From: Anaerolineales bacterium
GTDB lineage: Bacteria > Chloroflexota > Anaerolineae > Anaerolineales > UBA11579
Length of the DNA: 64,000 bases
Reading direction: 5' to 3'
NCBI GenBank assembly: GCA_025808555.1
Contig: CP075526.1
Location: forward strand, 696,712 to 760,711
Below the pieces are notes generated by a model. The model was not told the origin of the DNA. It was given only the letters and a program-made list of their open reading frames with translations, and ran no database searches. Positions within the stretch are counted from its first letter, which is position 1. Each line of letters opens with the position of its first letter. This document shows positions 1 through 33,832 of this stretch, in pieces. The position numbers and the translations under genes are program-made.

Positions 1-2100
1 TCAGAACTGCTCAAGCTGCTGCTCATCATTTACCTGGCGGCTTACCTGGCCGACCGCCAGCCGCTGATGACCGGGCTGCTGCCGCTGCTGGCGCCCACGG
101 CAGTGATGACCGGCGCGGTGTTGTTGTTGCTTATGGTGCAGCGCGATCTCGGCACGGCCTGGGTCTTTATCTTCATTTACACGATCCTGATCTACATCGC
201 CGCGGGCAAGCGGCGTGTACTGCTGGCCAGCGCGCTGGTGCTGATCCTGGCGATGGTGGCCGGCTACGAACTGGTGGGCCTTGTGCATGCCCGCATCGAC
301 AGCTGGCTAAACCCCTGGGTAGACCCGACCAATCGCTCCTACCAGATCGTGCAGGCGCTGATGGCGATCGCCGCCGGCGGCATGTTCGGCCGCGGGCCTG
401 GCCTGGGCAGCCCGGGCTTTGTGCCCGTGGCCCACAGCGACTTTATCTACACCTCCATCGTGGAGGAAAGCGGCCTGCTGGGCGCCATCGCCCTGCTGGC
501 GCTGATCGCCTTCCTGGTGGTACGCGCCCTGCGCATCTCGCTGCATGCTCGGGACGCTTACCAGCGCTATCTGGCCATCGGCCTGGCCGCCTACATCGCC
601 AGCCAGAGTTTGCTGATCATTGGCGGCAACATCCGCATGCTGCCGCTGACCGGCGTCACCCTGCCGTTCGTCTCCTACGGCGGCTCATCCATGCTGGTCT
701 CGTTCTTTGCATTGCTGCTGCTGTCTCTGGTGAGCCATGACGGTGTGCACCGTTCGGCGCCGGTGCTCAACAGCCGCCCCACCCTGATCATTGCCGGGCT
801 GTTGCTGGGCGCGTTCGCCCTGGCGGCCGCCATCACCGGCTGGTGGGGTGTAGTGCGCGGGCCAGACCTACTAACGCGTAACGACAATGCCCGCCGCGGC
901 CTGTCTGACCGTTACGTCTGGCGCGGCGCCCTGCTGGATCGTGACTATGAGCCACTCTCGCGTACCGGCGGCGCGGCCAGCGAGTACACGCGTGACTATG
1001 TTGAACCGAGCCTGGGCAATATTCTGGGCTATTCGCACCCGCAATTCGGCCAGTCTGGCCTGGAAGATGGGCTCGACCCGATCCTGCGTGGCGAAGAACG
1101 CCAGCCAGCCTGGGGCCTATGGATGAGCCATATTCTGTACGGCCAGCCATCGCCCGGGCTGGATGTGCAATTGAGCCTGGACCTGGAGCTGACCCTGTAC
1201 AGCATGCAAGCGCTGGAGGGCCAGCGCGGCGCTGCAGTGGTGATGGATGCGGCCAGCGGTGAAGTGCTGGCAATGGCATCCCAGCCCAGCTTCAATGCCA
1301 GCACTGTGGCTGAAGACTGGCCCGCCCTGCTGGAAAGCGAATATTCGCCATTGATGAACCGCGCCGTGCAAGGCGCCTACCCGCCGGGCGGCGCCCTGGG
1401 GCCATGGCTGCTAGCCGCCGCCCGCAGCCAGGACATACTGCCCGAGCCCAGCGCTGAGACAAGCTATGTGCTGAACGGCGTGACGCTGGAATGCACTCGG
1501 GAACCTGCTCAGCTGGAGTGGGACGCGTTGATCGCAGGTGCGTGCCCGGGCGCGCTGGCGCAGTTGGGCCTGGCGCTGGGCGAGCAGAACCTGCTGGCCC
1601 TGTACAACACGCTGGGCCTATATAGCGCACCCAGCGTGCCGCTGCGCCAGCCGGCGTTCACTGCGCCGGCCAGCCTGCCGCGGCCGGGTGAGGCCGCCAC
1701 CGGCCAGGCAGGGATGCTGGTGAGCCCGCTGCAAATGGCCCGCGTGGCAGCCACGCTGAGCAACGGCGGCCAGCTGCCGGCTGCCCAGCTGGCGCTGGCG
1801 GTGAAAGACGCCAGCGGCGAGTGGCTGCCATATACGGAGGAAGCGGCCGCGCAAGCAGTGCTGACCAGCGCGGCCGCCTTCAGCCAGGCCCAGCGCCTGG
1901 CCGCCAGCGATGAGCCGATATGGGAACTGAGCGCAACCGCGCTCGGCGCCAGCGGGCAACGCTACGCCTGGTACCTGGCCGGCAGCCTGAGCCGCGGCAA
2001 CCAGCCGACCCGCGTGGTGGTCGTGCTGCTGGAGGATGCCAGCCCGGCACGTGCCATGTCCATCGGCCGCGAACTGCTGCTGGCGGCGTTGGATGGATAG
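1..2100 (+). CDS. SEDS (FtsW/RodA) glycosyltransferase fused to a class-B PBP-like domain that lacks catalytic motifs; 5' end outside window
   Basis: The frame is open from base 1 (SELLKLLLIIYLAAYLAD..). SEDS hallmarks are GRGPGLGSPGFVPVAHSDFIYTSIVEE and LPLTGVTLPFVSYGGSS. After the last TM the sequence follows PBP2/FtsI landmarks (VVMDAASGEVLAMASQPSFN, NRAVQGAYPPG, TLSNGG), but SxxK reads GALG and there is no KTG. Confidence 0.85.
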   Translation, partial: SELLKLLLIIYLAAYLADRQPLMTGLLPLLAPTAVMTGAVLLLLMVQRDLGTAWVFIFIYTILIYIAAGKRRVLLASALVLILAMVAGYELVGLVHARIDSWLNPWVDPTNRSYQIVQALMAIAAGGMFGRGPGLGSPGFVPVAHSDFIYTSIVEESGLLGAIALLALIAFLVVRALRISLHARDAYQRYLAIGLAAYIASQSLLIIGGNIRMLPLTGVTLPFVSYGGSSMLVSFFALLLLSLVSHDGVHRSAPVLNSRPTLIIAGLLLGAFALAAAITGWWGVVRGPDLLTRNDNARRGLSDRYVWRGALLDRDYEPLSRTGGAASEYTRDYVEPSLGNILGYSHPQFGQSGLEDGLDPILRGEERQPAWGLWMSHILYGQPSPGLDVQLSLDLELTLYSMQALEGQRGAAVVMDAASGEVLAMASQPSFNASTVAEDWPALLESEYSPLMNRAVQGAYPPGGALGPWLLAAARSQDILPEPSAETSYVLNGVTLECTREPAQLEWDALIAGACPGALAQLGLALGEQNLLALYNTLGLYSAPSVPLRQPAFTAPASLPRPGEAATGQAGMLVSPLQMARVAATLSNGGQLPAAQLALAVKDASGEWLPYTEEAAAQAVLTSAAAFSQAQRLAASDEPIWELSATALGASGQRYAWYLAGSLSRGNQPTRVVVVLLEDASPARAMSIGRELLLAALDG

Positions 2101-24390: not shown

Positions 24391-25008
24391 CTAACGCATG
24401 GTGGCCGCGGCATAGATGGTGAAGGTGGACACGAACCAGTGGATGAGAAAGGGATAAAGGAAGGAGCGGGTGCGCCAGGCCACCAGGCCAAAAAGGACCC
24501 CGCCGAACAGGGTGGAGTAGGTTTCGACGGCGGGTTTGCTGATATGGGCCAGGGCGAAGGGTACCGAGGCGAGCCAGAGGGCGTTGGCGCCGAAAAAGCG
24601 GGCGTAGCCGAAGAGCAGAAAGCCGCGGAAGAAGAACTCCCAGCCGATAAGATCGAGAAAAGTGTAGATGGCGGCGGCCGGGCCGCTTTGGTGGGCGTAG
24701 TAGGCGACCATGTTGGGGTCGTTGCGGCCGACGAACCAGAGGATGGGCGCGCCAATTGCGACCACCAGGCCGGTGAGGGCCAGGCCGGCGCGCCAATCGC
24801 CAAGTTGGAAGCCGTACTCGCCCACCGGGCGGCGGAAGGCAAAGATAATGATGCCGAGCGGGATGATGAGGTACAGCGCCACACGGTCGATGACCTTGAT
24901 GGGGGTGAGGCGCTCGTAATAGTCGATCATGAGCAGCAGCGTGCTGACGATGGTGAGGGCGACCACCTCGCGGTCAAACTTGACATTGAAATCGAAGAGT
25001 TTTTTCAT
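24391..25008 (-). CDS. CPBP family intramembrane glutamic endopeptidase (CAAX protease family)
   Basis: The EExxxR-type motif is GWEFFFRGFLLF, with a later FALAH and a further His. The protein is polytopic. ATG 25008 sits 1 nt after the upstream stop. Confidence 0.75.
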   Translation of the reverse strand: MKKLFDFNVKFDREVVALTIVSTLLLMIDYYERLTPIKVIDRVALYLIIPLGIIIFAFRRPVGEYGFQLGDWRAGLALTGLVVAIGAPILWFVGRNDPNMVAYYAHQSGPAAAIYTFLDLIGWEFFFRGFLLFGYARFFGANALWLASVPFALAHISKPAVETYSTLFGGVLFGLVAWRTRSFLYPFLIHWFVSTFTIYAAATMR

Positions 25009-25009
25009 G

Positions 25010-26464
25010 CTAGTAGGAGAAGCCAGCATGGTTGCCATCCGGCCCGAAGAGTTGGGCCAGTTTGGCAGCGTCGCGGTGCAGCTCCAGACCCCAATTCAAC
25101 CACAGCAACGCGACGAGCAGCCCGGCAGCTACGACGCGAGGGGCACTGCGGCTGGCTTGCGCCAACAGCTCACGACGTTGTGACCAAGCATGGCCTGCAT
25201 AGACGGCCAGCACCGGCAGGATGGCAAGATGGAAACGGTCCTCCGCCATGAGGAGCATGTGAGGCACGATGTACCCTGCCAGCAGAAGAAGCACCAGCGT
25301 GTGTGCACGCGTGCTGCGAGCGAATGAAAAGCCAAGCGCGGCAAGGGTGGCGATGATAGGGAACGGCAGCGTGAAGAGCAGGAAAACGCCAACCAACGGC
25401 ACGGTTGGAATGCTGCCGAAGAAGTTGTTGGTATAGAAATAACTGATGGCGCGGCGCTCGAGGCCAAAAAAGTAGCCGAGCTTGCTGGCCATGAGACTTG
25501 GTACGCGGCCGGGGTCTTCTTTTATATAGTCGAGCGCCATTTGCGTACCGCGCGTGTTGCGTTCGCCGTCGTCGAGATAGGGCAAGAGCTCCAGCGAGAT
25601 GCCGTACTGGAAGGTTCCGGTGCCCTGCGGGTGGTAGCCCATGTGCAGGTTATAGCCCATCGAATTCTCGACGAAGGTGAACTGACCTTCGAGCAGGGTA
25701 TTGCGTATCGTCCAGGGCAGCACGAGCGCCAGCACGGCCGCGCCGTACAAAAATGCGCCGCGCACGTTGCGCAGGCCGAACAGGATCCAGAGACCGGCCA
25801 GGCCGGCGAAGGCGAAGATGACCGAACGGGTCAGCGTGGCAATGCCGAGGATAAGGCCGGCCAACAGCCAGTCACGGGCGCGCTGCTTCTCGGCAGCGCG
25901 CAGCAGGGCCAGCAGGCCGCCGAGCACCAGCGGGAAGAACAGGTTCTCTGTGGCGAGGGCCAGCGGATAGATGAGCAGCATCGGATAGGCGGCCAGCGCC
26001 AGCCCGGCGAAGCGGGCGACGCGCTCGTCATCGGGAAACAGGCGGCGGGCGAGGGCAAAGGTGAGCGGCGCCAGCAGCGCGCCGAGGGCGGCGTTGGCCA
26101 GGCGGGCGGCGAACAGGCGCCACTCCAGCCCGCTGAGGGTGTAGACGCCGGCGAGCAGGAAGGGATAGGCCGGGGCACGGAAGGAGGTCTCGATGCCACG
26201 CGGGTCATAGTCGGGCGCAATGAAGTCTATGTCGATGTAGCTGCGCATCAGGTCCAGGTCGGGCTGGGCGTACCAGCGGTAGCCCTGGCCGGCGGCGAGG
26301 CTGCGGCCAAGCATGTCGTACTGGAACATGTCATCGAGCCCGATGGGCAGGTTGATGGCGGCGATGACGGGGATGAGGCGCAGGATGAGGGCGAGGAGGA
26401 ACAGGCCTGCGGGCGAGAAGAGTTTGGGGAGGCGCATGGAATGGGCGGAATTATATGCTGGCAT
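25010..26464 (-). CDS. glycosyltransferase family 39 (ArnT/PMT-like) membrane protein
   Basis: About 12 TM helices, with an N-terminal loop PIGLDDMFQYD resembling the GT-C DxD/ExD loop. The start could instead be 26437. Confidence 0.6.
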   Translation of the reverse strand: MPAYNSAHSMRLPKLFSPAGLFLLALILRLIPVIAAINLPIGLDDMFQYDMLGRSLAAGQGYRWYAQPDLDLMRSYIDIDFIAPDYDPRGIETSFRAPAYPFLLAGVYTLSGLEWRLFAARLANAALGALLAPLTFALARRLFPDDERVARFAGLALAAYPMLLIYPLALATENLFFPLVLGGLLALLRAAEKQRARDWLLAGLILGIATLTRSVIFAFAGLAGLWILFGLRNVRGAFLYGAAVLALVLPWTIRNTLLEGQFTFVENSMGYNLHMGYHPQGTGTFQYGISLELLPYLDDGERNTRGTQMALDYIKEDPGRVPSLMASKLGYFFGLERRAISYFYTNNFFGSIPTVPLVGVFLLFTLPFPIIATLAALGFSFARSTRAHTLVLLLLAGYIVPHMLLMAEDRFHLAILPVLAVYAGHAWSQRRELLAQASRSAPRVVAAGLLVALLWLNWGLELHRDAAKLAQLFGPDGNHAGFSY

Positions 26465-29902: not shown

Positions 29903-30176
29903 GGGGGGATTTTACCAACGTCAGGTTCATGAACTTAGCGAGCGTGAGGATTGCGGTTCAATAACCGGTTCAACGGAGGATTGCTTGCAGTGTGCTGCCG
30001 GCCTGCAGGTTATTGTACGCTCTACCGCAGGACTGCCCATGTGACTACCCACCTGGGTGCCAATTGAGTTTATACTTAACATGGCTTGATGGGGCCTGTG
30101 CCAAAACTCCACAACTGCATTGCAGTGCAACCGCCGGTCTGCTGGCACAAACGACAATCAAGAGGAACGTAAAACG

Positions 30177-32378
30177 ATGAAAAGTTCTCTGAATTCCAGC
30201 TGGAGACTAATTGTTGCTTTGACGCTAGTAGTCGTTTTGGCGCCGTTCCCCACACGACAGGCGAAAGCTGCCGGCGTTTCGCCGGCTAGCTATCTTGCAG
30301 AGGACGGCAGCCTGATGCTGCCAGCCGACTTCAGCGGCGCGCTGGATCTGACGGGCTGGGACGTGGGTCTGGATAGCCAGCGAGGCCTGGTGTTTCAACC
30401 CGCCGCGGCAATTGACGGCGCATGGAGCGCCCTAAACGATGTGGGTACAGGCTTGAACGGCAGCGGCAACACGATCGCGCTGGATGGCGGCACGGTGTAT
30501 GTGGGCGGCTTTTTTACCGATGCAGCAGGTGACCCGGATGCGGATAACATCGTCAAGTTAGAAGGCGGCGCCTGGACCACGCTGGGTGGGGCTAACACAG
30601 GGTTGAACCAGGGTGTCCGGGTGGTTGTGATCGATGGGGGTGTGATCTATGCCGGCGGCACCTTCACGGATGCCGGGGGTGATCCGGATGCGGATAACAT
30701 CGCCAAGTTTGAAAGCGGTGCATGGTCCTCTTTAGGCGGCGCCGGTACGGGTTTGAATTCGGGTGTATTAAGCATCACAATCGATGGCGGCATTATCTAT
30801 GCTGGAGGCAATTTCACGAACGCCGGCGGCGATCCAGACGCCGATCGGATCGCGCAATTCAGCGGCGGCAGTTGGTCTTCGCTGGGTGGGGCAAACAGCG
30901 ACCTGAACAACAGGGTAGAAGTAATCGAAGTTCACGGAGGGATTATTTACGCCGGCGGCGCCTTCCTGAATGCGGGGCTAGACCCTGATGCCAATTTCAT
31001 TGCCAAATTTGAAAGCGGCGCCTGGTCCTCGCTGGGAGGTGCCGGCACCGGCCTATCCGGCCCTGTTCTTGATCTTGTCATTTCCGGCGCGGTGATCTAT
31101 GCCGCCGGCGATTTTGTAAATGCCGGCGGGGATGCGGATGCCGATTACATTGCCAAGTTTGAGAGCGGCGCATGGTCATCCCTGGGCGGTTCGGGCAGCG
31201 GTCTCCCGGGGTATGTGGAGGTGCTGCTGATCTCCGGCGGGATTATTTACGTGGGCGGGGATTTCGACAACGCGGGCGGAGACCCAAATGCTGATCGAAT
31301 TGCCAAGTTTAGCGATGGCGCCTGGTCCTCCCTGAATGGGGCTAACACAGGTTTGAGTGACATTGTTAACGATATGGTGATCGTGGACAACGTACTGTAC
31401 GCCGTCGGCTCCTTTGAAAACGCCGGTGGCGATGCGGATACGGATTACGCGGCTCAATTTGGTCTGGTGTTTAGTAAACCCCAAACCACGACCCAACAGA
31501 TTTCAAGAGTAGAGATTGCTACCTCAGGTACCACTACGCTGGAGCTGGGTGATATTTCAGTTAGCCTGCCGGCTGAAGCCGTGACTGGTCTAGGCTCTTG
31601 TAGCTTGAGCATTCAAGACCTTGGCAATTCCGGCGATTTTGGATTTACTCTGAACGATAGCGTTTGGGATGTAGATATCACTTGTGACGGGGCAAACCAG
31701 CATATCTTCCTTGCGCCGATAACAATTTGTATTCGTCCCGAAGGAAGCACGGACGATAAAAAGATCTTCCATCGCGGGGATGCTGGCGGTTCCTGGGATC
31801 CGCTGGCGACGCTTAGCAGCTCCAGCGGCATGATCTGTGCCCACACGCGCACCCTCTCATTGTTTACATTAGGAAGTTTTAGTCTGCCGAATACTGGGTT
31901 TGCGCCTAATGTGGCAGCTGAACTGAACCCGAAAGCGGCGTATGCATCAACTGGATTACATCTCAGCATCCCCAAGCTTGGCCTGGCGACTGACATCGTC
32001 GGCGTTCCACAGGGCATCAATGGGTGGGATGTTAGCTGGCTGGGCGAGAGCGCCGGCTTCCTGCACGGCACTGCTTTCCCGACCCTTGCGGGAAACACGG
32101 TTATCACTGCTCATGTATGGGGCGCGGACAATCAGCCTGGCCCGTTTGCAGGATTGCATGGCTTACGGTACGGCGACCATATTAGTATCAATGCCTGGGG
32201 CCAAACATACACCTATGAGGTACGGACCAACACCAGCTACAGCCCCAGCAGCCTTAGCCCGCTGGCCACAACCGATCATGATTGGGTGACATTGATCACT
32301 TGCCAAGGTTTTGATGAAGTCAGCGGCGAATACCTGTTTAGACGGGTTGTGAGGGCGGTGCTAATCAGCATCGATTAG
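30177..32378 (+). CDS. secreted 7x50-aa repeat (propeller-like) protein with internal LPNTG and C-terminal sortase domain
   Basis: GAGGA SD lies before ATG 30177. Signal peptide is MKSSLNSSWRLIVALTLVVVLAPFPTRQAKA. Seven repeats run from 30420 to 31469. LPNTG is at 31884-31898. The sortase triad context is NTVITAH (His codon 32112-32114), TLITC (Cys codon 32301-32303) and RRVVRA. Confidence 0.8.
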   Translation: MKSSLNSSWRLIVALTLVVVLAPFPTRQAKAAGVSPASYLAEDGSLMLPADFSGALDLTGWDVGLDSQRGLVFQPAAAIDGAWSALNDVGTGLNGSGNTIALDGGTVYVGGFFTDAAGDPDADNIVKLEGGAWTTLGGANTGLNQGVRVVVIDGGVIYAGGTFTDAGGDPDADNIAKFESGAWSSLGGAGTGLNSGVLSITIDGGIIYAGGNFTNAGGDPDADRIAQFSGGSWSSLGGANSDLNNRVEVIEVHGGIIYAGGAFLNAGLDPDANFIAKFESGAWSSLGGAGTGLSGPVLDLVISGAVIYAAGDFVNAGGDADADYIAKFESGAWSSLGGSGSGLPGYVEVLLISGGIIYVGGDFDNAGGDPNADRIAKFSDGAWSSLNGANTGLSDIVNDMVIVDNVLYAVGSFENAGGDADTDYAAQFGLVFSKPQTTTQQISRVEIATSGTTTLELGDISVSLPAEAVTGLGSCSLSIQDLGNSGDFGFTLNDSVWDVDITCDGANQHIFLAPITICIRPEGSTDDKKIFHRGDAGGSWDPLATLSSSSGMICAHTRTLSLFTLGSFSLPNTGFAPNVAAELNPKAAYASTGLHLSIPKLGLATDIVGVPQGINGWDVSWLGESAGFLHGTAFPTLAGNTVITAHVWGADNQPGPFAGLHGLRYGDHISINAWGQTYTYEVRTNTSYSPSSLSPLATTDHDWVTLITCQGFDEVSGEYLFRRVVRAVLISID
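30420..31469 (+). repeat. seven in-frame tandem 150-bp (50-aa) coding repeats
   Basis: The (A/S)W(S/T)(S/A/T)L motif recurs exactly every 50 residues (ORF residues 101, 151 ... 401). Consensus: AWSSLGGAGTGLN..V..I.I.GGIIYAGG.F.NAGGDPDAD.IAKFESG. Confidence 0.9.
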
Positions 32379-32492: not shown

Positions 32493-33341
32493 TTACGGGT
32501 ACTCGTAGAACCCCTTGCCGCTCTTGCGACCCAGGTAACCGGCGTCGACCATGCGGCGCAGGAGCGGGGCTGGGCGATACTTGCTATCGCCCAGGTCACG
32601 CTGCAGGACTTCCATCACATAGAGCACGACATCAAGGCCGATAAGGTCGGCCAGGGTTAGCGGGCCCATGGGATGGGCCATGCCGAGCTTCATGACGGTA
32701 TCGATGCCCTCGGCATCCGAGACGCCCTCCTCGAGGGCGAAGATGGCTTCGTTGATCATGGGGCACAGCACGCGATTGGAGACGAAGCCGGGCGAGTCAT
32801 TGACCACGACGGGGGTCTTGCCCATTTGGCGGCCGACCTCGAGGGCGAGGTCTACGCTGGCGTCGCTGGTGCCCAGGCCGCGCACGATCTCGATGAGCGA
32901 CATGAGCGGCACCGGGTTGAAGAAGTGCATGCCCACGACCTTGTCGGGGCGCTTCGTAGCGGCGGCCAGCTTGGTGAGGCTGATCGAGGAAGTATTGGAG
33001 GCCAGCACCGTTTCGGGGCGGGCGATGCTGTCCAGATCCTGAAAGAGCTTGAACTTGATCTCAGGGTTCTCGGTGGCGGCTTCGATCACCAGGTCGGTTT
33101 CGGCGACGCCCTTGATGTCCGTCACAGGGATGATGGCGAGGGCGGCTTGCTTCTGCTCCGGCGTGATGCGGCCCTTCTCAGCCAGTTTCTCGACCGACTT
33201 GGCGATGGTGCTGACGCCGCGCTGCACGAACTCTTCGGCCACATCCATTATAGTGACCTGGTAGCCGGAAACGGCGGCAGTCTGGGCGATGCCGTTGCCC
33301 ATGGTGCCGGCGCCGATGACGAAGATCTTCTTGATGGCCAT
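32493..33341 (-). CDS. hbd: 3-hydroxybutyryl-CoA dehydrogenase
   Basis: The Rossmann start is [17 protein letters not shown], and the C-terminal block is [17 protein letters not shown] 33341 overlaps the upstream stop (TAATG). Confidence 0.88.
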
Positions 33342-33832
33342 TAGGACTCCTGCTGCTCTTTCCAAATCTTGTAATTCTCGGTAATTTGCTGAGCGTGGGC
33401 GCGGGGATGGTTGGAGTAGATGCGCAGCCACTTCTCGAAGGTATAGGGCTCGTCGTATTCAGGGTGCACGACGGTGTTGCTCCATACTTCGTCGGGCAAA
33501 TTCTTGATGAAGTCGTAGGTGACTTTGCGCACGAGCCGCGTCAGGGCCAGGGCGTCTTCAATGTTCTCGGAGTGGTAGTTGAGCTTGACGGCCCACAGGT
33601 CCTGGTCGTAGGCCATCAGGGGCTGGCCGGGTTCGGCAACCAGGCGGCGGGCGCGCAGGTAACTGTTGGTCTCGCTATCGAGCAGGTGAATGATGTTCTC
33701 GTGCACGCTCCACGCATCCGGGGCGGGCTTGAATAGCCAGGCCTCCTGCGGGATGGTATTCAGCGCGGCTTCGAATTCGTCGAAGGCGCTGGCGTATTTC
33801 TCGATGAGCTGCTGGCGTTCGGCTTTATCCAC
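33341..33832 (-). CDS. DinB family protein
   Basis: The four-helix DinB_2 pattern has His at IIHLLDSE and NHPRAH. Confidence 0.65.

Follow-up and report, generated by a model that had tools for sequence, protein, structure and literature searches.

We analysed a 64,000-nucleotide (nt) stretch of the genome of an Anaerolineales bacterium (Chloroflexota; contig CP075526.1 of assembly GCA_025808555.1, positions 696,712 to 760,711; hereafter the window), in which a gene at positions 30177–32378 on the forward strand encodes a secreted protein with an LPXTG-type sorting motif, LPNTG, just upstream of a sortase domain on the same chain. The last ~165 residues of this protein, comprising the motif and the sortase, are a portable C-terminal cassette of a large Anaerolineae family and not a one-off fusion. 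On balance, and with modest confidence, we favour the view that this segment is a self-contained covalent sorting cassette with signal and sortase on one chain, which is predicted to undergo cleavage and transfer its cargo, after which the enzyme would be discarded.

The open, continuous reading frame encodes 733 amino acids (aa). A preceding sequence-only reading had proposed that these comprise a signal peptide, seven 50-aa repeats, a domain of about 140 aa, LPNTG and a sortase, and this layout was confirmed. AlphaFold2 models were obtained for the full-length protein (mean predicted local distance difference test score, pLDDT, 87.9) and for the module alone (aa 555–733; 93-sequence alignment; pLDDT 92.4, predicted template-modelling score 0.88), and from N- to C-terminus the protein consists of a signal peptide, a propeller, a beta-sandwich, LPNTG, a docked linker and a sortase barrel. 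The Sec-type signal peptide (aa 1 to ~31/32; 30177–30272, +) has a basic n-region, the h-region LIVALTLVVVLAPFP and an AKA/AG cleavage-type site; it is hydrophobic in a Kyte-Doolittle scan, its residues 1–29 were modelled with pLDDT <50, and by the A-x-A rule it would be cleaved near Ala31/Ala32. The cargo that follows is a seven-bladed beta-propeller of the Rax2/DUF5122 type (~aa 60–430; 30354–31466, +), recognised by its periodicity, by Pfam matches, which were weak for both Rax2 and DUF5122, and by AlphaFold2. Its repeats keep an exact 50-aa period, six of them (aa 107 to 357) fitting a strict pattern and a degenerate seventh lying at ~aa 407, and it was modelled with four strands per blade at pLDDT 90–97. 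In the model, a short hinge joins the propeller to a beta-sandwich stalk domain (aa 440–567; 31494–31877, +; pLDDT 76–93). This is the domain of about 140 aa noted earlier; it has no Pfam match, and its final strand ends two residues before LPNTG.

The LPNTG motif (aa 570–574; 31884–31898, +), with a predicted scissile bond between Thr573 and Gly574, is followed by a conserved 21-residue docking linker, FAPNVAAELNPKAAYASTGLH (31899–31961, +; family consensus F-A-P-G-x-V-T-x-L-P-x-Q-P-x-x-K-A-Y), and by a class C-like sortase catalytic domain (aa 596–733; 31962–32375, +; barrel from ~aa 590 in the AlphaFold2 model). The protein terminates with strand beta-8 of this barrel. In the Kyte-Doolittle scan, hydrophobic windows covered only the signal peptide at the N-terminus and a single strand of the propeller, with none detected past aa 300. 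The scan thus upheld the claim that neither a transmembrane segment nor a basic tail follows LPNTG. The protein has the signal-peptide-like N-terminus and the LPXTG near the C-terminus of a sortase substrate, but in place of a hydrophobic segment and a positively charged tail it has, after the motif, a polar linker and then a globular sortase of 138 aa.

The sortase domain is real and, judged from sequence and model, looks catalytically competent. Pfam Sortase (PF04203; MEROPS C60) matched aa 596–729 with 62.5 bits against a cut-off of 26.6, covering profile positions 1–124 of 125, which settled the domain assignment that the sequence-only reading had put forward for checking. Foldseek matched the model with probability 1.00 and template-modelling scores of 0.63–0.68 to class C sortases, including 2XWG, 5K9A/6BWE, 3O0P and 2W1J; over the many sortase structures matched, the template-modelling scores ranged from 0.6 to 0.68. 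In hidden Markov model (HMM) comparison with the PDB, the predicted catalytic His646 in NTVITAH (32112–32114, +) and Cys709 in TLITC (32301–32303, +) aligned residue by residue with solved class C sortases, namely with the His of VITAH/VISGH and with TLLTC/TLITC; they were conserved in 121/121 and 119/120 sequences, respectively. The predicted catalytic Arg722 in RRVVRA (32340–32342, +), which lies inside the Pfam match, was placed by its family-wide invariance (119/120) and its spacing of 13 residues from Cys709. The Cys184-Arg197 spacing of Staphylococcus aureus SrtA is also 13 residues. Motif and triad therefore all stand where they had been read from the letters, and the predicted triad (His646/Cys709/Arg722) is intact on a modelled sortase fold. 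Cys709 is the only Cys of the 160-aa fragment that cleavage would free.

The best matches in both sequence and structure were class C sortases (Actinomyces oris SrtC-1, 2XWG; Streptococcus pneumoniae SrtC-1, 2W1J; Corynebacterium diphtheriae SrtA, 5K9A; group B Streptococcus SrtC1), with which the domain has the eight-stranded barrel and the His/Cys/Arg triad in common. The NCBIfam class_C_sortase model was the best of the class models yet reached only 41.8 bits against a cut-off of 160, in a partial match (aa 618–711). The other models scored 32.6 against 160 (class E), 26.5 against 166 (class F), 24.0 against 165 (class D), 25.9 against 140 (SrtD) and 25.7 against 158 (marine, GN), and no class A or class B model matched at E ≤ 1. 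Membership in a defined sortase class was rejected because no class model came near its cut-off, and for the same reason we call the enzyme class C-like and not a class C sortase. The database name “class F sortase” given to some homologues is unsupported for the window protein at this score. Unlike class C enzymes, the domain closes a large secreted protein at its C-terminus and has neither an N- nor a C-terminal membrane anchor, the chain stopping at the last barrel strand. It also lacks a DP[W/F/Y] lid motif upstream of beta-1 and has a genuine LPxTG-F in its place, the equivalent region reading LPNTGFAPN (family consensus LPxTGFAPG). Annotation of the neighbouring genes revealed no pilin genes, and thus no pilus cluster of the class C kind.

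Conservation of the motif was assessed in two sets of homologues. With the C-terminal 185 aa as query, 208 homologues were retrieved, and those with a taxon name in the source record were Chloroflexi/Anaerolineae. The best 120 were aligned unfiltered, and the motif columns read L 83/98, P 98/98, X variable, T 98/99, G 97/97 and F 95/98, followed by a conserved A-P-G-x-V-T-x-L-P-x-Q...A-Y and then by the barrel start L-E-I-P-x-L-G. A second set of 325 non-redundant modules was picked by HMM coverage alone, with the motif ignored. Here P and G were present in 325/325, T in 320/325 (Ser in three of the exceptions) and the following F in 320/325 (Tyr otherwise), P4 was L, I, M or V, and X was any of at least eight residues (A, D, S, E, N, K, G, V and others). 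Both xPxTG and the full His/Cys/Arg triad were intact in 318/325 modules. Such invariance of P, T and G around a free X is how a genuine sortase signal is constrained. Orthologues, and likewise paralogues whose cargo is unrelated, keep the motif almost without change at this position, and on this conservation the option left by the sequence-only reading that it is coincidental was rejected.

A chance motif, or an assembly or gene-call artefact joining a surface protein to a separate sortase gene, therefore has practically no chance of being correct. In its favour is only the prior that an LPXTG occurs by chance in ~1–2% of proteins of this length (a rough estimate). Against it, hundreds of independent assemblies have this architecture and spacing, no break interrupts the reading frame and the junction was modelled confidently; we rejected this explanation on the conservation of motif and architecture across homologues.

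The family was further delimited by a scan of species-representative genomes, which returned 570 relatives. The best 80 of these (77 distinct loci) were examined; all came from Anaerolineae or Chloroflexota metagenome-assembled genomes (MAGs), and a single MAG contributed as many as five of the loci. The cassette is present in several copies per Anaerolineae genome. Across the 77 loci, the distance from the motif to the C-terminus was 166–172 aa in proteins of 490 to >2800 aa with hydrophobic N-termini. Their cargos are unrelated and include Chlam_PMP, right-handed beta-helix, TIG, Big_5, HYDIN-type Ig and DUF7933 domains, the window protein bearing a propeller. A profile search of 1.84 billion representatives yielded at least 1433 clusters (50% identity) at E ≤ 1e-30. 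The best 150 included 147 newly returned proteins, 144 of which had the motif in the C-terminal part and 137 at 166–172 residues from the end. With its fixed C-terminal place behind unrelated cargos, the cassette behaves like a sorting tag. In databases, the family is labelled “sortase” or “LPXTG-site transpeptidase family protein”, and it has no specific NCBIfam model.

Homologues of the propeller in Bacteroidota, Ignavibacteria and related groups have the C-terminal domain (CTD) of the type IX secretion system (T9SS; PF18962) where the window protein has the cassette, which indicates that this position is where such cargos bear their sorting device. The T9SS CTD is a passive signal cut off by a separate, sortase-like PorU, whereas signal and enzyme are fused in the window protein. 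The Rax2/DUF5122-type seven-blade propeller (homologues of aa ~60–430; P0132–P0240) is a widespread surface cargo in other phyla, with the T9SS CTD (PF18962), PF19565, FlgD-Ig (PF13860) or CSLREA as partners.

Several variants of the cassette genes were observed. Adjacent pairs in the same orientation occurred at ten loci (L010, L012, L014, L015, L023, L037, L043, L047, L058 and L067), which suggests local duplication or co-expressed sets. Many paralogues (e.g. L045:42-866 and L032:3977-4711) have a conserved domain of ~100 aa directly before LPXTG that has no Pfam match and reads NYLLVEAG.NG.F ... GTYRLF[VI]CGTTSI.D ... F.V; this domain possibly serves the cassette as its own stalk or adaptor, and the window protein has a different beta-sandwich at this place. 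One protein of 1048 aa (P0308) has two cassettes in series (aa 689–858 and 878–1048), a rare arrangement, the second with a degenerate LPKMGY and an intact His/Cys/Arg triad. Stand-alone versions of the sortase were sought and rejected, the hits of 141–184 aa being fragments, gene calls cut short or, in one case, the product of a deletion; none of these short sortase-only hits had an N-terminal membrane anchor. A 184-aa open reading frame (ORF; L009:7845-8399) has a signal peptide and first ~60 aa like those of the window protein, fused straight to the sortase at a shared GWDV (N-terminal LDGWDV, sortase NGWDVSWLG) and without propeller, sandwich or LPXTG. Either a microhomology-based deletion or a collapsed assembly produced this ORF.

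The segment between sandwich and barrel is predicted to be docked in the substrate groove, on the grounds of model confidence, positional homology to the class C lid and weak covariation. In the module model, the three 10-residue blocks containing LPNTG and the linker had pLDDT values of 85/93/81 and no regular secondary structure. These values are far above those of a free tether, so the segment is predicted to pack on the barrel in a defined way. The sequence-only reading had left it to structure prediction whether the linker could reach the Cys, and the prediction returned an ordered docked segment instead of a floppy tether. Conservation in the linker was high (F 99%, T 86%, L 90%, Y 97%), and in longer-linker members the insertion was placed after “AY”, indicating that LPxTGF...AY moves as a block whose tether differs in length between members.

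The HMM comparison with the PDB aligned the residues directly after LPxTG with the GLDPF lid of the Ebp class C sortase. In class C enzymes, the lid is a loop ~25 residues upstream of beta-1 that lies in the substrate groove and overlaps SrtA-bound LPAT, the prolines coinciding (PMC3493515). The alignment thus implies that a segment at the LPXTG position can reach the groove. Covariation was computed as mutual information with average product correction (effective number of sequences ~226; uncorrected for phylogeny). P4 (aa 570) paired best with aa 695 in the beta6/beta7 loop, at rank 61/14365, and residues 576–578 paired with 701/702, 713 and 641 near the active site. In SrtA, the beta6/beta7 loop is the element that reads Leu-Pro. 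We take the covariation as a weak hint that the linker is placed at the barrel.

The alignment with the class C lid also bears on another explanation, in which the LPXTG is a permanently bound, uncleaved pseudo-substrate lid, the sortase acts in trans and the N-terminal domains position the enzyme on the surface. Known lids are pseudo-substrates, and the linker is modelled as stably docked. We nevertheless consider this quite unlikely, since known class C lids are only DP[WFY] and lack Thr-Gly (PMC3493515), whereas the family of the window protein keeps Thr-Gly almost without exception and leaves X free, a pattern that marks a signal as cleaved. It would be hard to explain why one lineage should use dozens of large, unrelated surface proteins as enzyme carriers, and separate substrates with canonical signals were not seen in 986 kb: in these loci plus the window, a small and biased sample, no ORF combined LPXTG/LAXTG with a hydrophobic segment.

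In the cleavage mechanism that we favour, the protein would be exported by Sec and its signal peptide removed near Ala31/Ala32. The GFAPGxVTxLPxQ..AY linker would hold LPNTG where class C sortases hold the lid, filling the groove of its own or a neighbouring copy, and Cys709 would attack the Thr573-Gly574 bond of its own or a sister chain; the data fit cleavage in trans between copies as well as they fit cleavage in cis. The resulting thioacyl intermediate would join the 54-kDa cargo to the sortase domain. An envelope amine, either in a peptidoglycan stem peptide or cross-bridge or on a Lys of an envelope protein, would then resolve this intermediate, so that the cargo would become covalently attached and a 17.1-kDa fragment starting GFAPN would be released. 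As the enzyme fragment would be discarded after transfer, each enzyme would be spent on one cargo. The process would be sortase-mediated sorting with enzyme and signal fused, neither of them membrane-anchored, and turnover probably single.

A self-cleaving sortase fusion tag was reportedly engineered by Mao in 2004. Engineered SrtA-LPETG-target fusions such as BISOP, which have sortase and LPXTG on one chain, demonstrably self-cleave, and same-chain chemistry is therefore feasible (PMC2901362). These tags are artificial and follow the order enzyme-LPETG-target, in which the acyl side stays with the enzyme while the target is freed. In the cargo-LPXTG-enzyme order found here, by contrast, the cargo would be the acyl donor and could be ligated onward.

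Sortases slowly hydrolyse their signal in the absence of a nucleophile, which counts for a different outcome, namely that water is the acceptor at Thr-Gly, a soluble mature protein is freed, and the cassette is a self-removing pro-domain that aids secretion or folding. The engineered fusions serve exactly in this way (PMC2901362). We give this explanation little credence, since a transpeptidase fold with a full triad in >1400 clusters is elaborate for mere proteolysis, and the cargos resemble anchored surface proteins, to which other phyla give anchoring and sorting domains.

The acceptor could instead belong to another protein, a further copy or a different envelope protein, which would offer a Lys or its N-terminus in place of peptidoglycan; as in class C pilus assembly, the cassette would then polymerise its cargos into covalent fibres, a sheath or a surface-layer network. 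The nearest relatives in sequence and structure are pilus-polymerising class C sortases, tandem genes are common, and the cargos are adhesin- or fibre-like repeats. Polymerisation is unlikely, though it deserves attention, because the varied cargos share no conserved Lys resembling a pilin motif and no acceptor domain, and no partner gene is conserved. All-versus-all clustering of the ORFs of the 77 loci returned, besides generic families, nothing but the cassette family and ORFs antisense to it; no recurrent neighbour was found beside the family genes, and a conserved operon partner or acceptor gene was rejected on this basis. Peptidoglycan synthesis genes are also present, which makes the classical acceptor available. 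One ORF at window positions 67–2100 (+) matched FtsW/RodA/SpoVE (SEDS) with 183 bits and the penicillin-binding transpeptidase with 57 bits and is, by these matches, a fusion of SEDS with a class B penicillin-binding protein, from which it follows that the organism makes peptidoglycan. The SEDS match spans profile positions 136–352 only, and since it starts at position 136 the gene probably begins upstream of the window.

Four points weigh against the proposed cleavage and transfer. First, the HMM sets the DPF of the lid opposite A576-P577-N578 and not opposite LPNTG, so that the motif could rest just outside the groove. Second, Gly574, a nucleophile of the sortase type, would stay tethered by the thioester after cleavage in cis, and religation may then compete with transfer; we speculate that the tethered Gly574 instead makes the intermediate a store of activated cargo until an acceptor comes. 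Third, using up one enzyme domain per cargo is costly. Fourth, the absence of canonical sortases and substrates is weak support, covering ~1 Mb of selected loci and not whole genomes.

The proposed cassette can be compared with two further systems. It has in common with the canonical signal and housekeeping sortase of S. aureus (SrtA) a signal peptide, a C-proximal LPXTG under the same positional constraints and a Cys transpeptidase, but its enzyme lies on the same polypeptide, downstream of the motif, is not membrane-bound and stands to its substrate at 1:1. The C-terminal Hint domain of Hedgehog forms a thioester at the cargo junction, passes the cargo on to an acceptor nucleophile and, having turned over once, is discarded; it does so by an N-to-S acyl shift at its own Cys, with cholesterol as acceptor. 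The likeness to the Hedgehog autoprocessing domain is one of logic alone, as fold and chemistry are unrelated and there is no homology.

The gene starts with ATG at 30177, 10 nt downstream of a Shine-Dalgarno-like GAGGA (30162–30166, +) that was read directly from the sequence, and ends with the stop codon TAG at 32376–32378. An alternative in-frame TTG upstream at 30120 would merely extend the protein by a polar leader. The gene stands alone, flanked by gatB and by a group of 3-hydroxyacyl-CoA dehydrogenase, DinB and thiolase genes, all on the opposite strand, and a GNAT acetyltransferase gene is also among its neighbours. The longest ORF of the dehydrogenase (32493–33431, −), with a GTG start, overlaps the DinB gene (33341–33832, −) by ~90 nt; its Pfam match starts at residue 34, and an internal Met is therefore probably the true start. 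About 4 kb upstream of the fusion gene, an Rce1/CAAX-type intramembrane protease-like gene (24391–25038, −) overlaps by 29 nt the end of a gene for a PMT_2 family glycosyltransferase with many transmembrane segments (25010–26464, −), and the two are a possible envelope-glycosylation pair.

We found no description of a natural cargo-LPXTG-sortase family in the full-text literature, a search whose scope left out most subscription journals. In the textbook picture, sortases are membrane-anchored and act on separate substrates held in the membrane. If our interpretation is correct, a large natural family with signal and enzyme fused 1:1 and no membrane anchor on either would alter this picture, and the compact cassette of ~165 aa would offer protein engineers a domain that ligates and then removes itself. 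Anaerolineae are abundant, poorly studied filamentous bacteria of sludge, sediments and the subsurface. It is a serious possibility, which we stop slightly short of calling probable, that they display much of their surface proteome through a single-use “suicide” sortase fused after its own LPXTG, in the absence of both a membrane-anchored sortase and a signal for membrane retention, the cargo being stored as a thioester and ligated once to the envelope by a portable single-chain ligation tag. The finding is relevant to the debated envelope architecture of the Chloroflexota and, if true, would explain how Anaerolineae build their surface.

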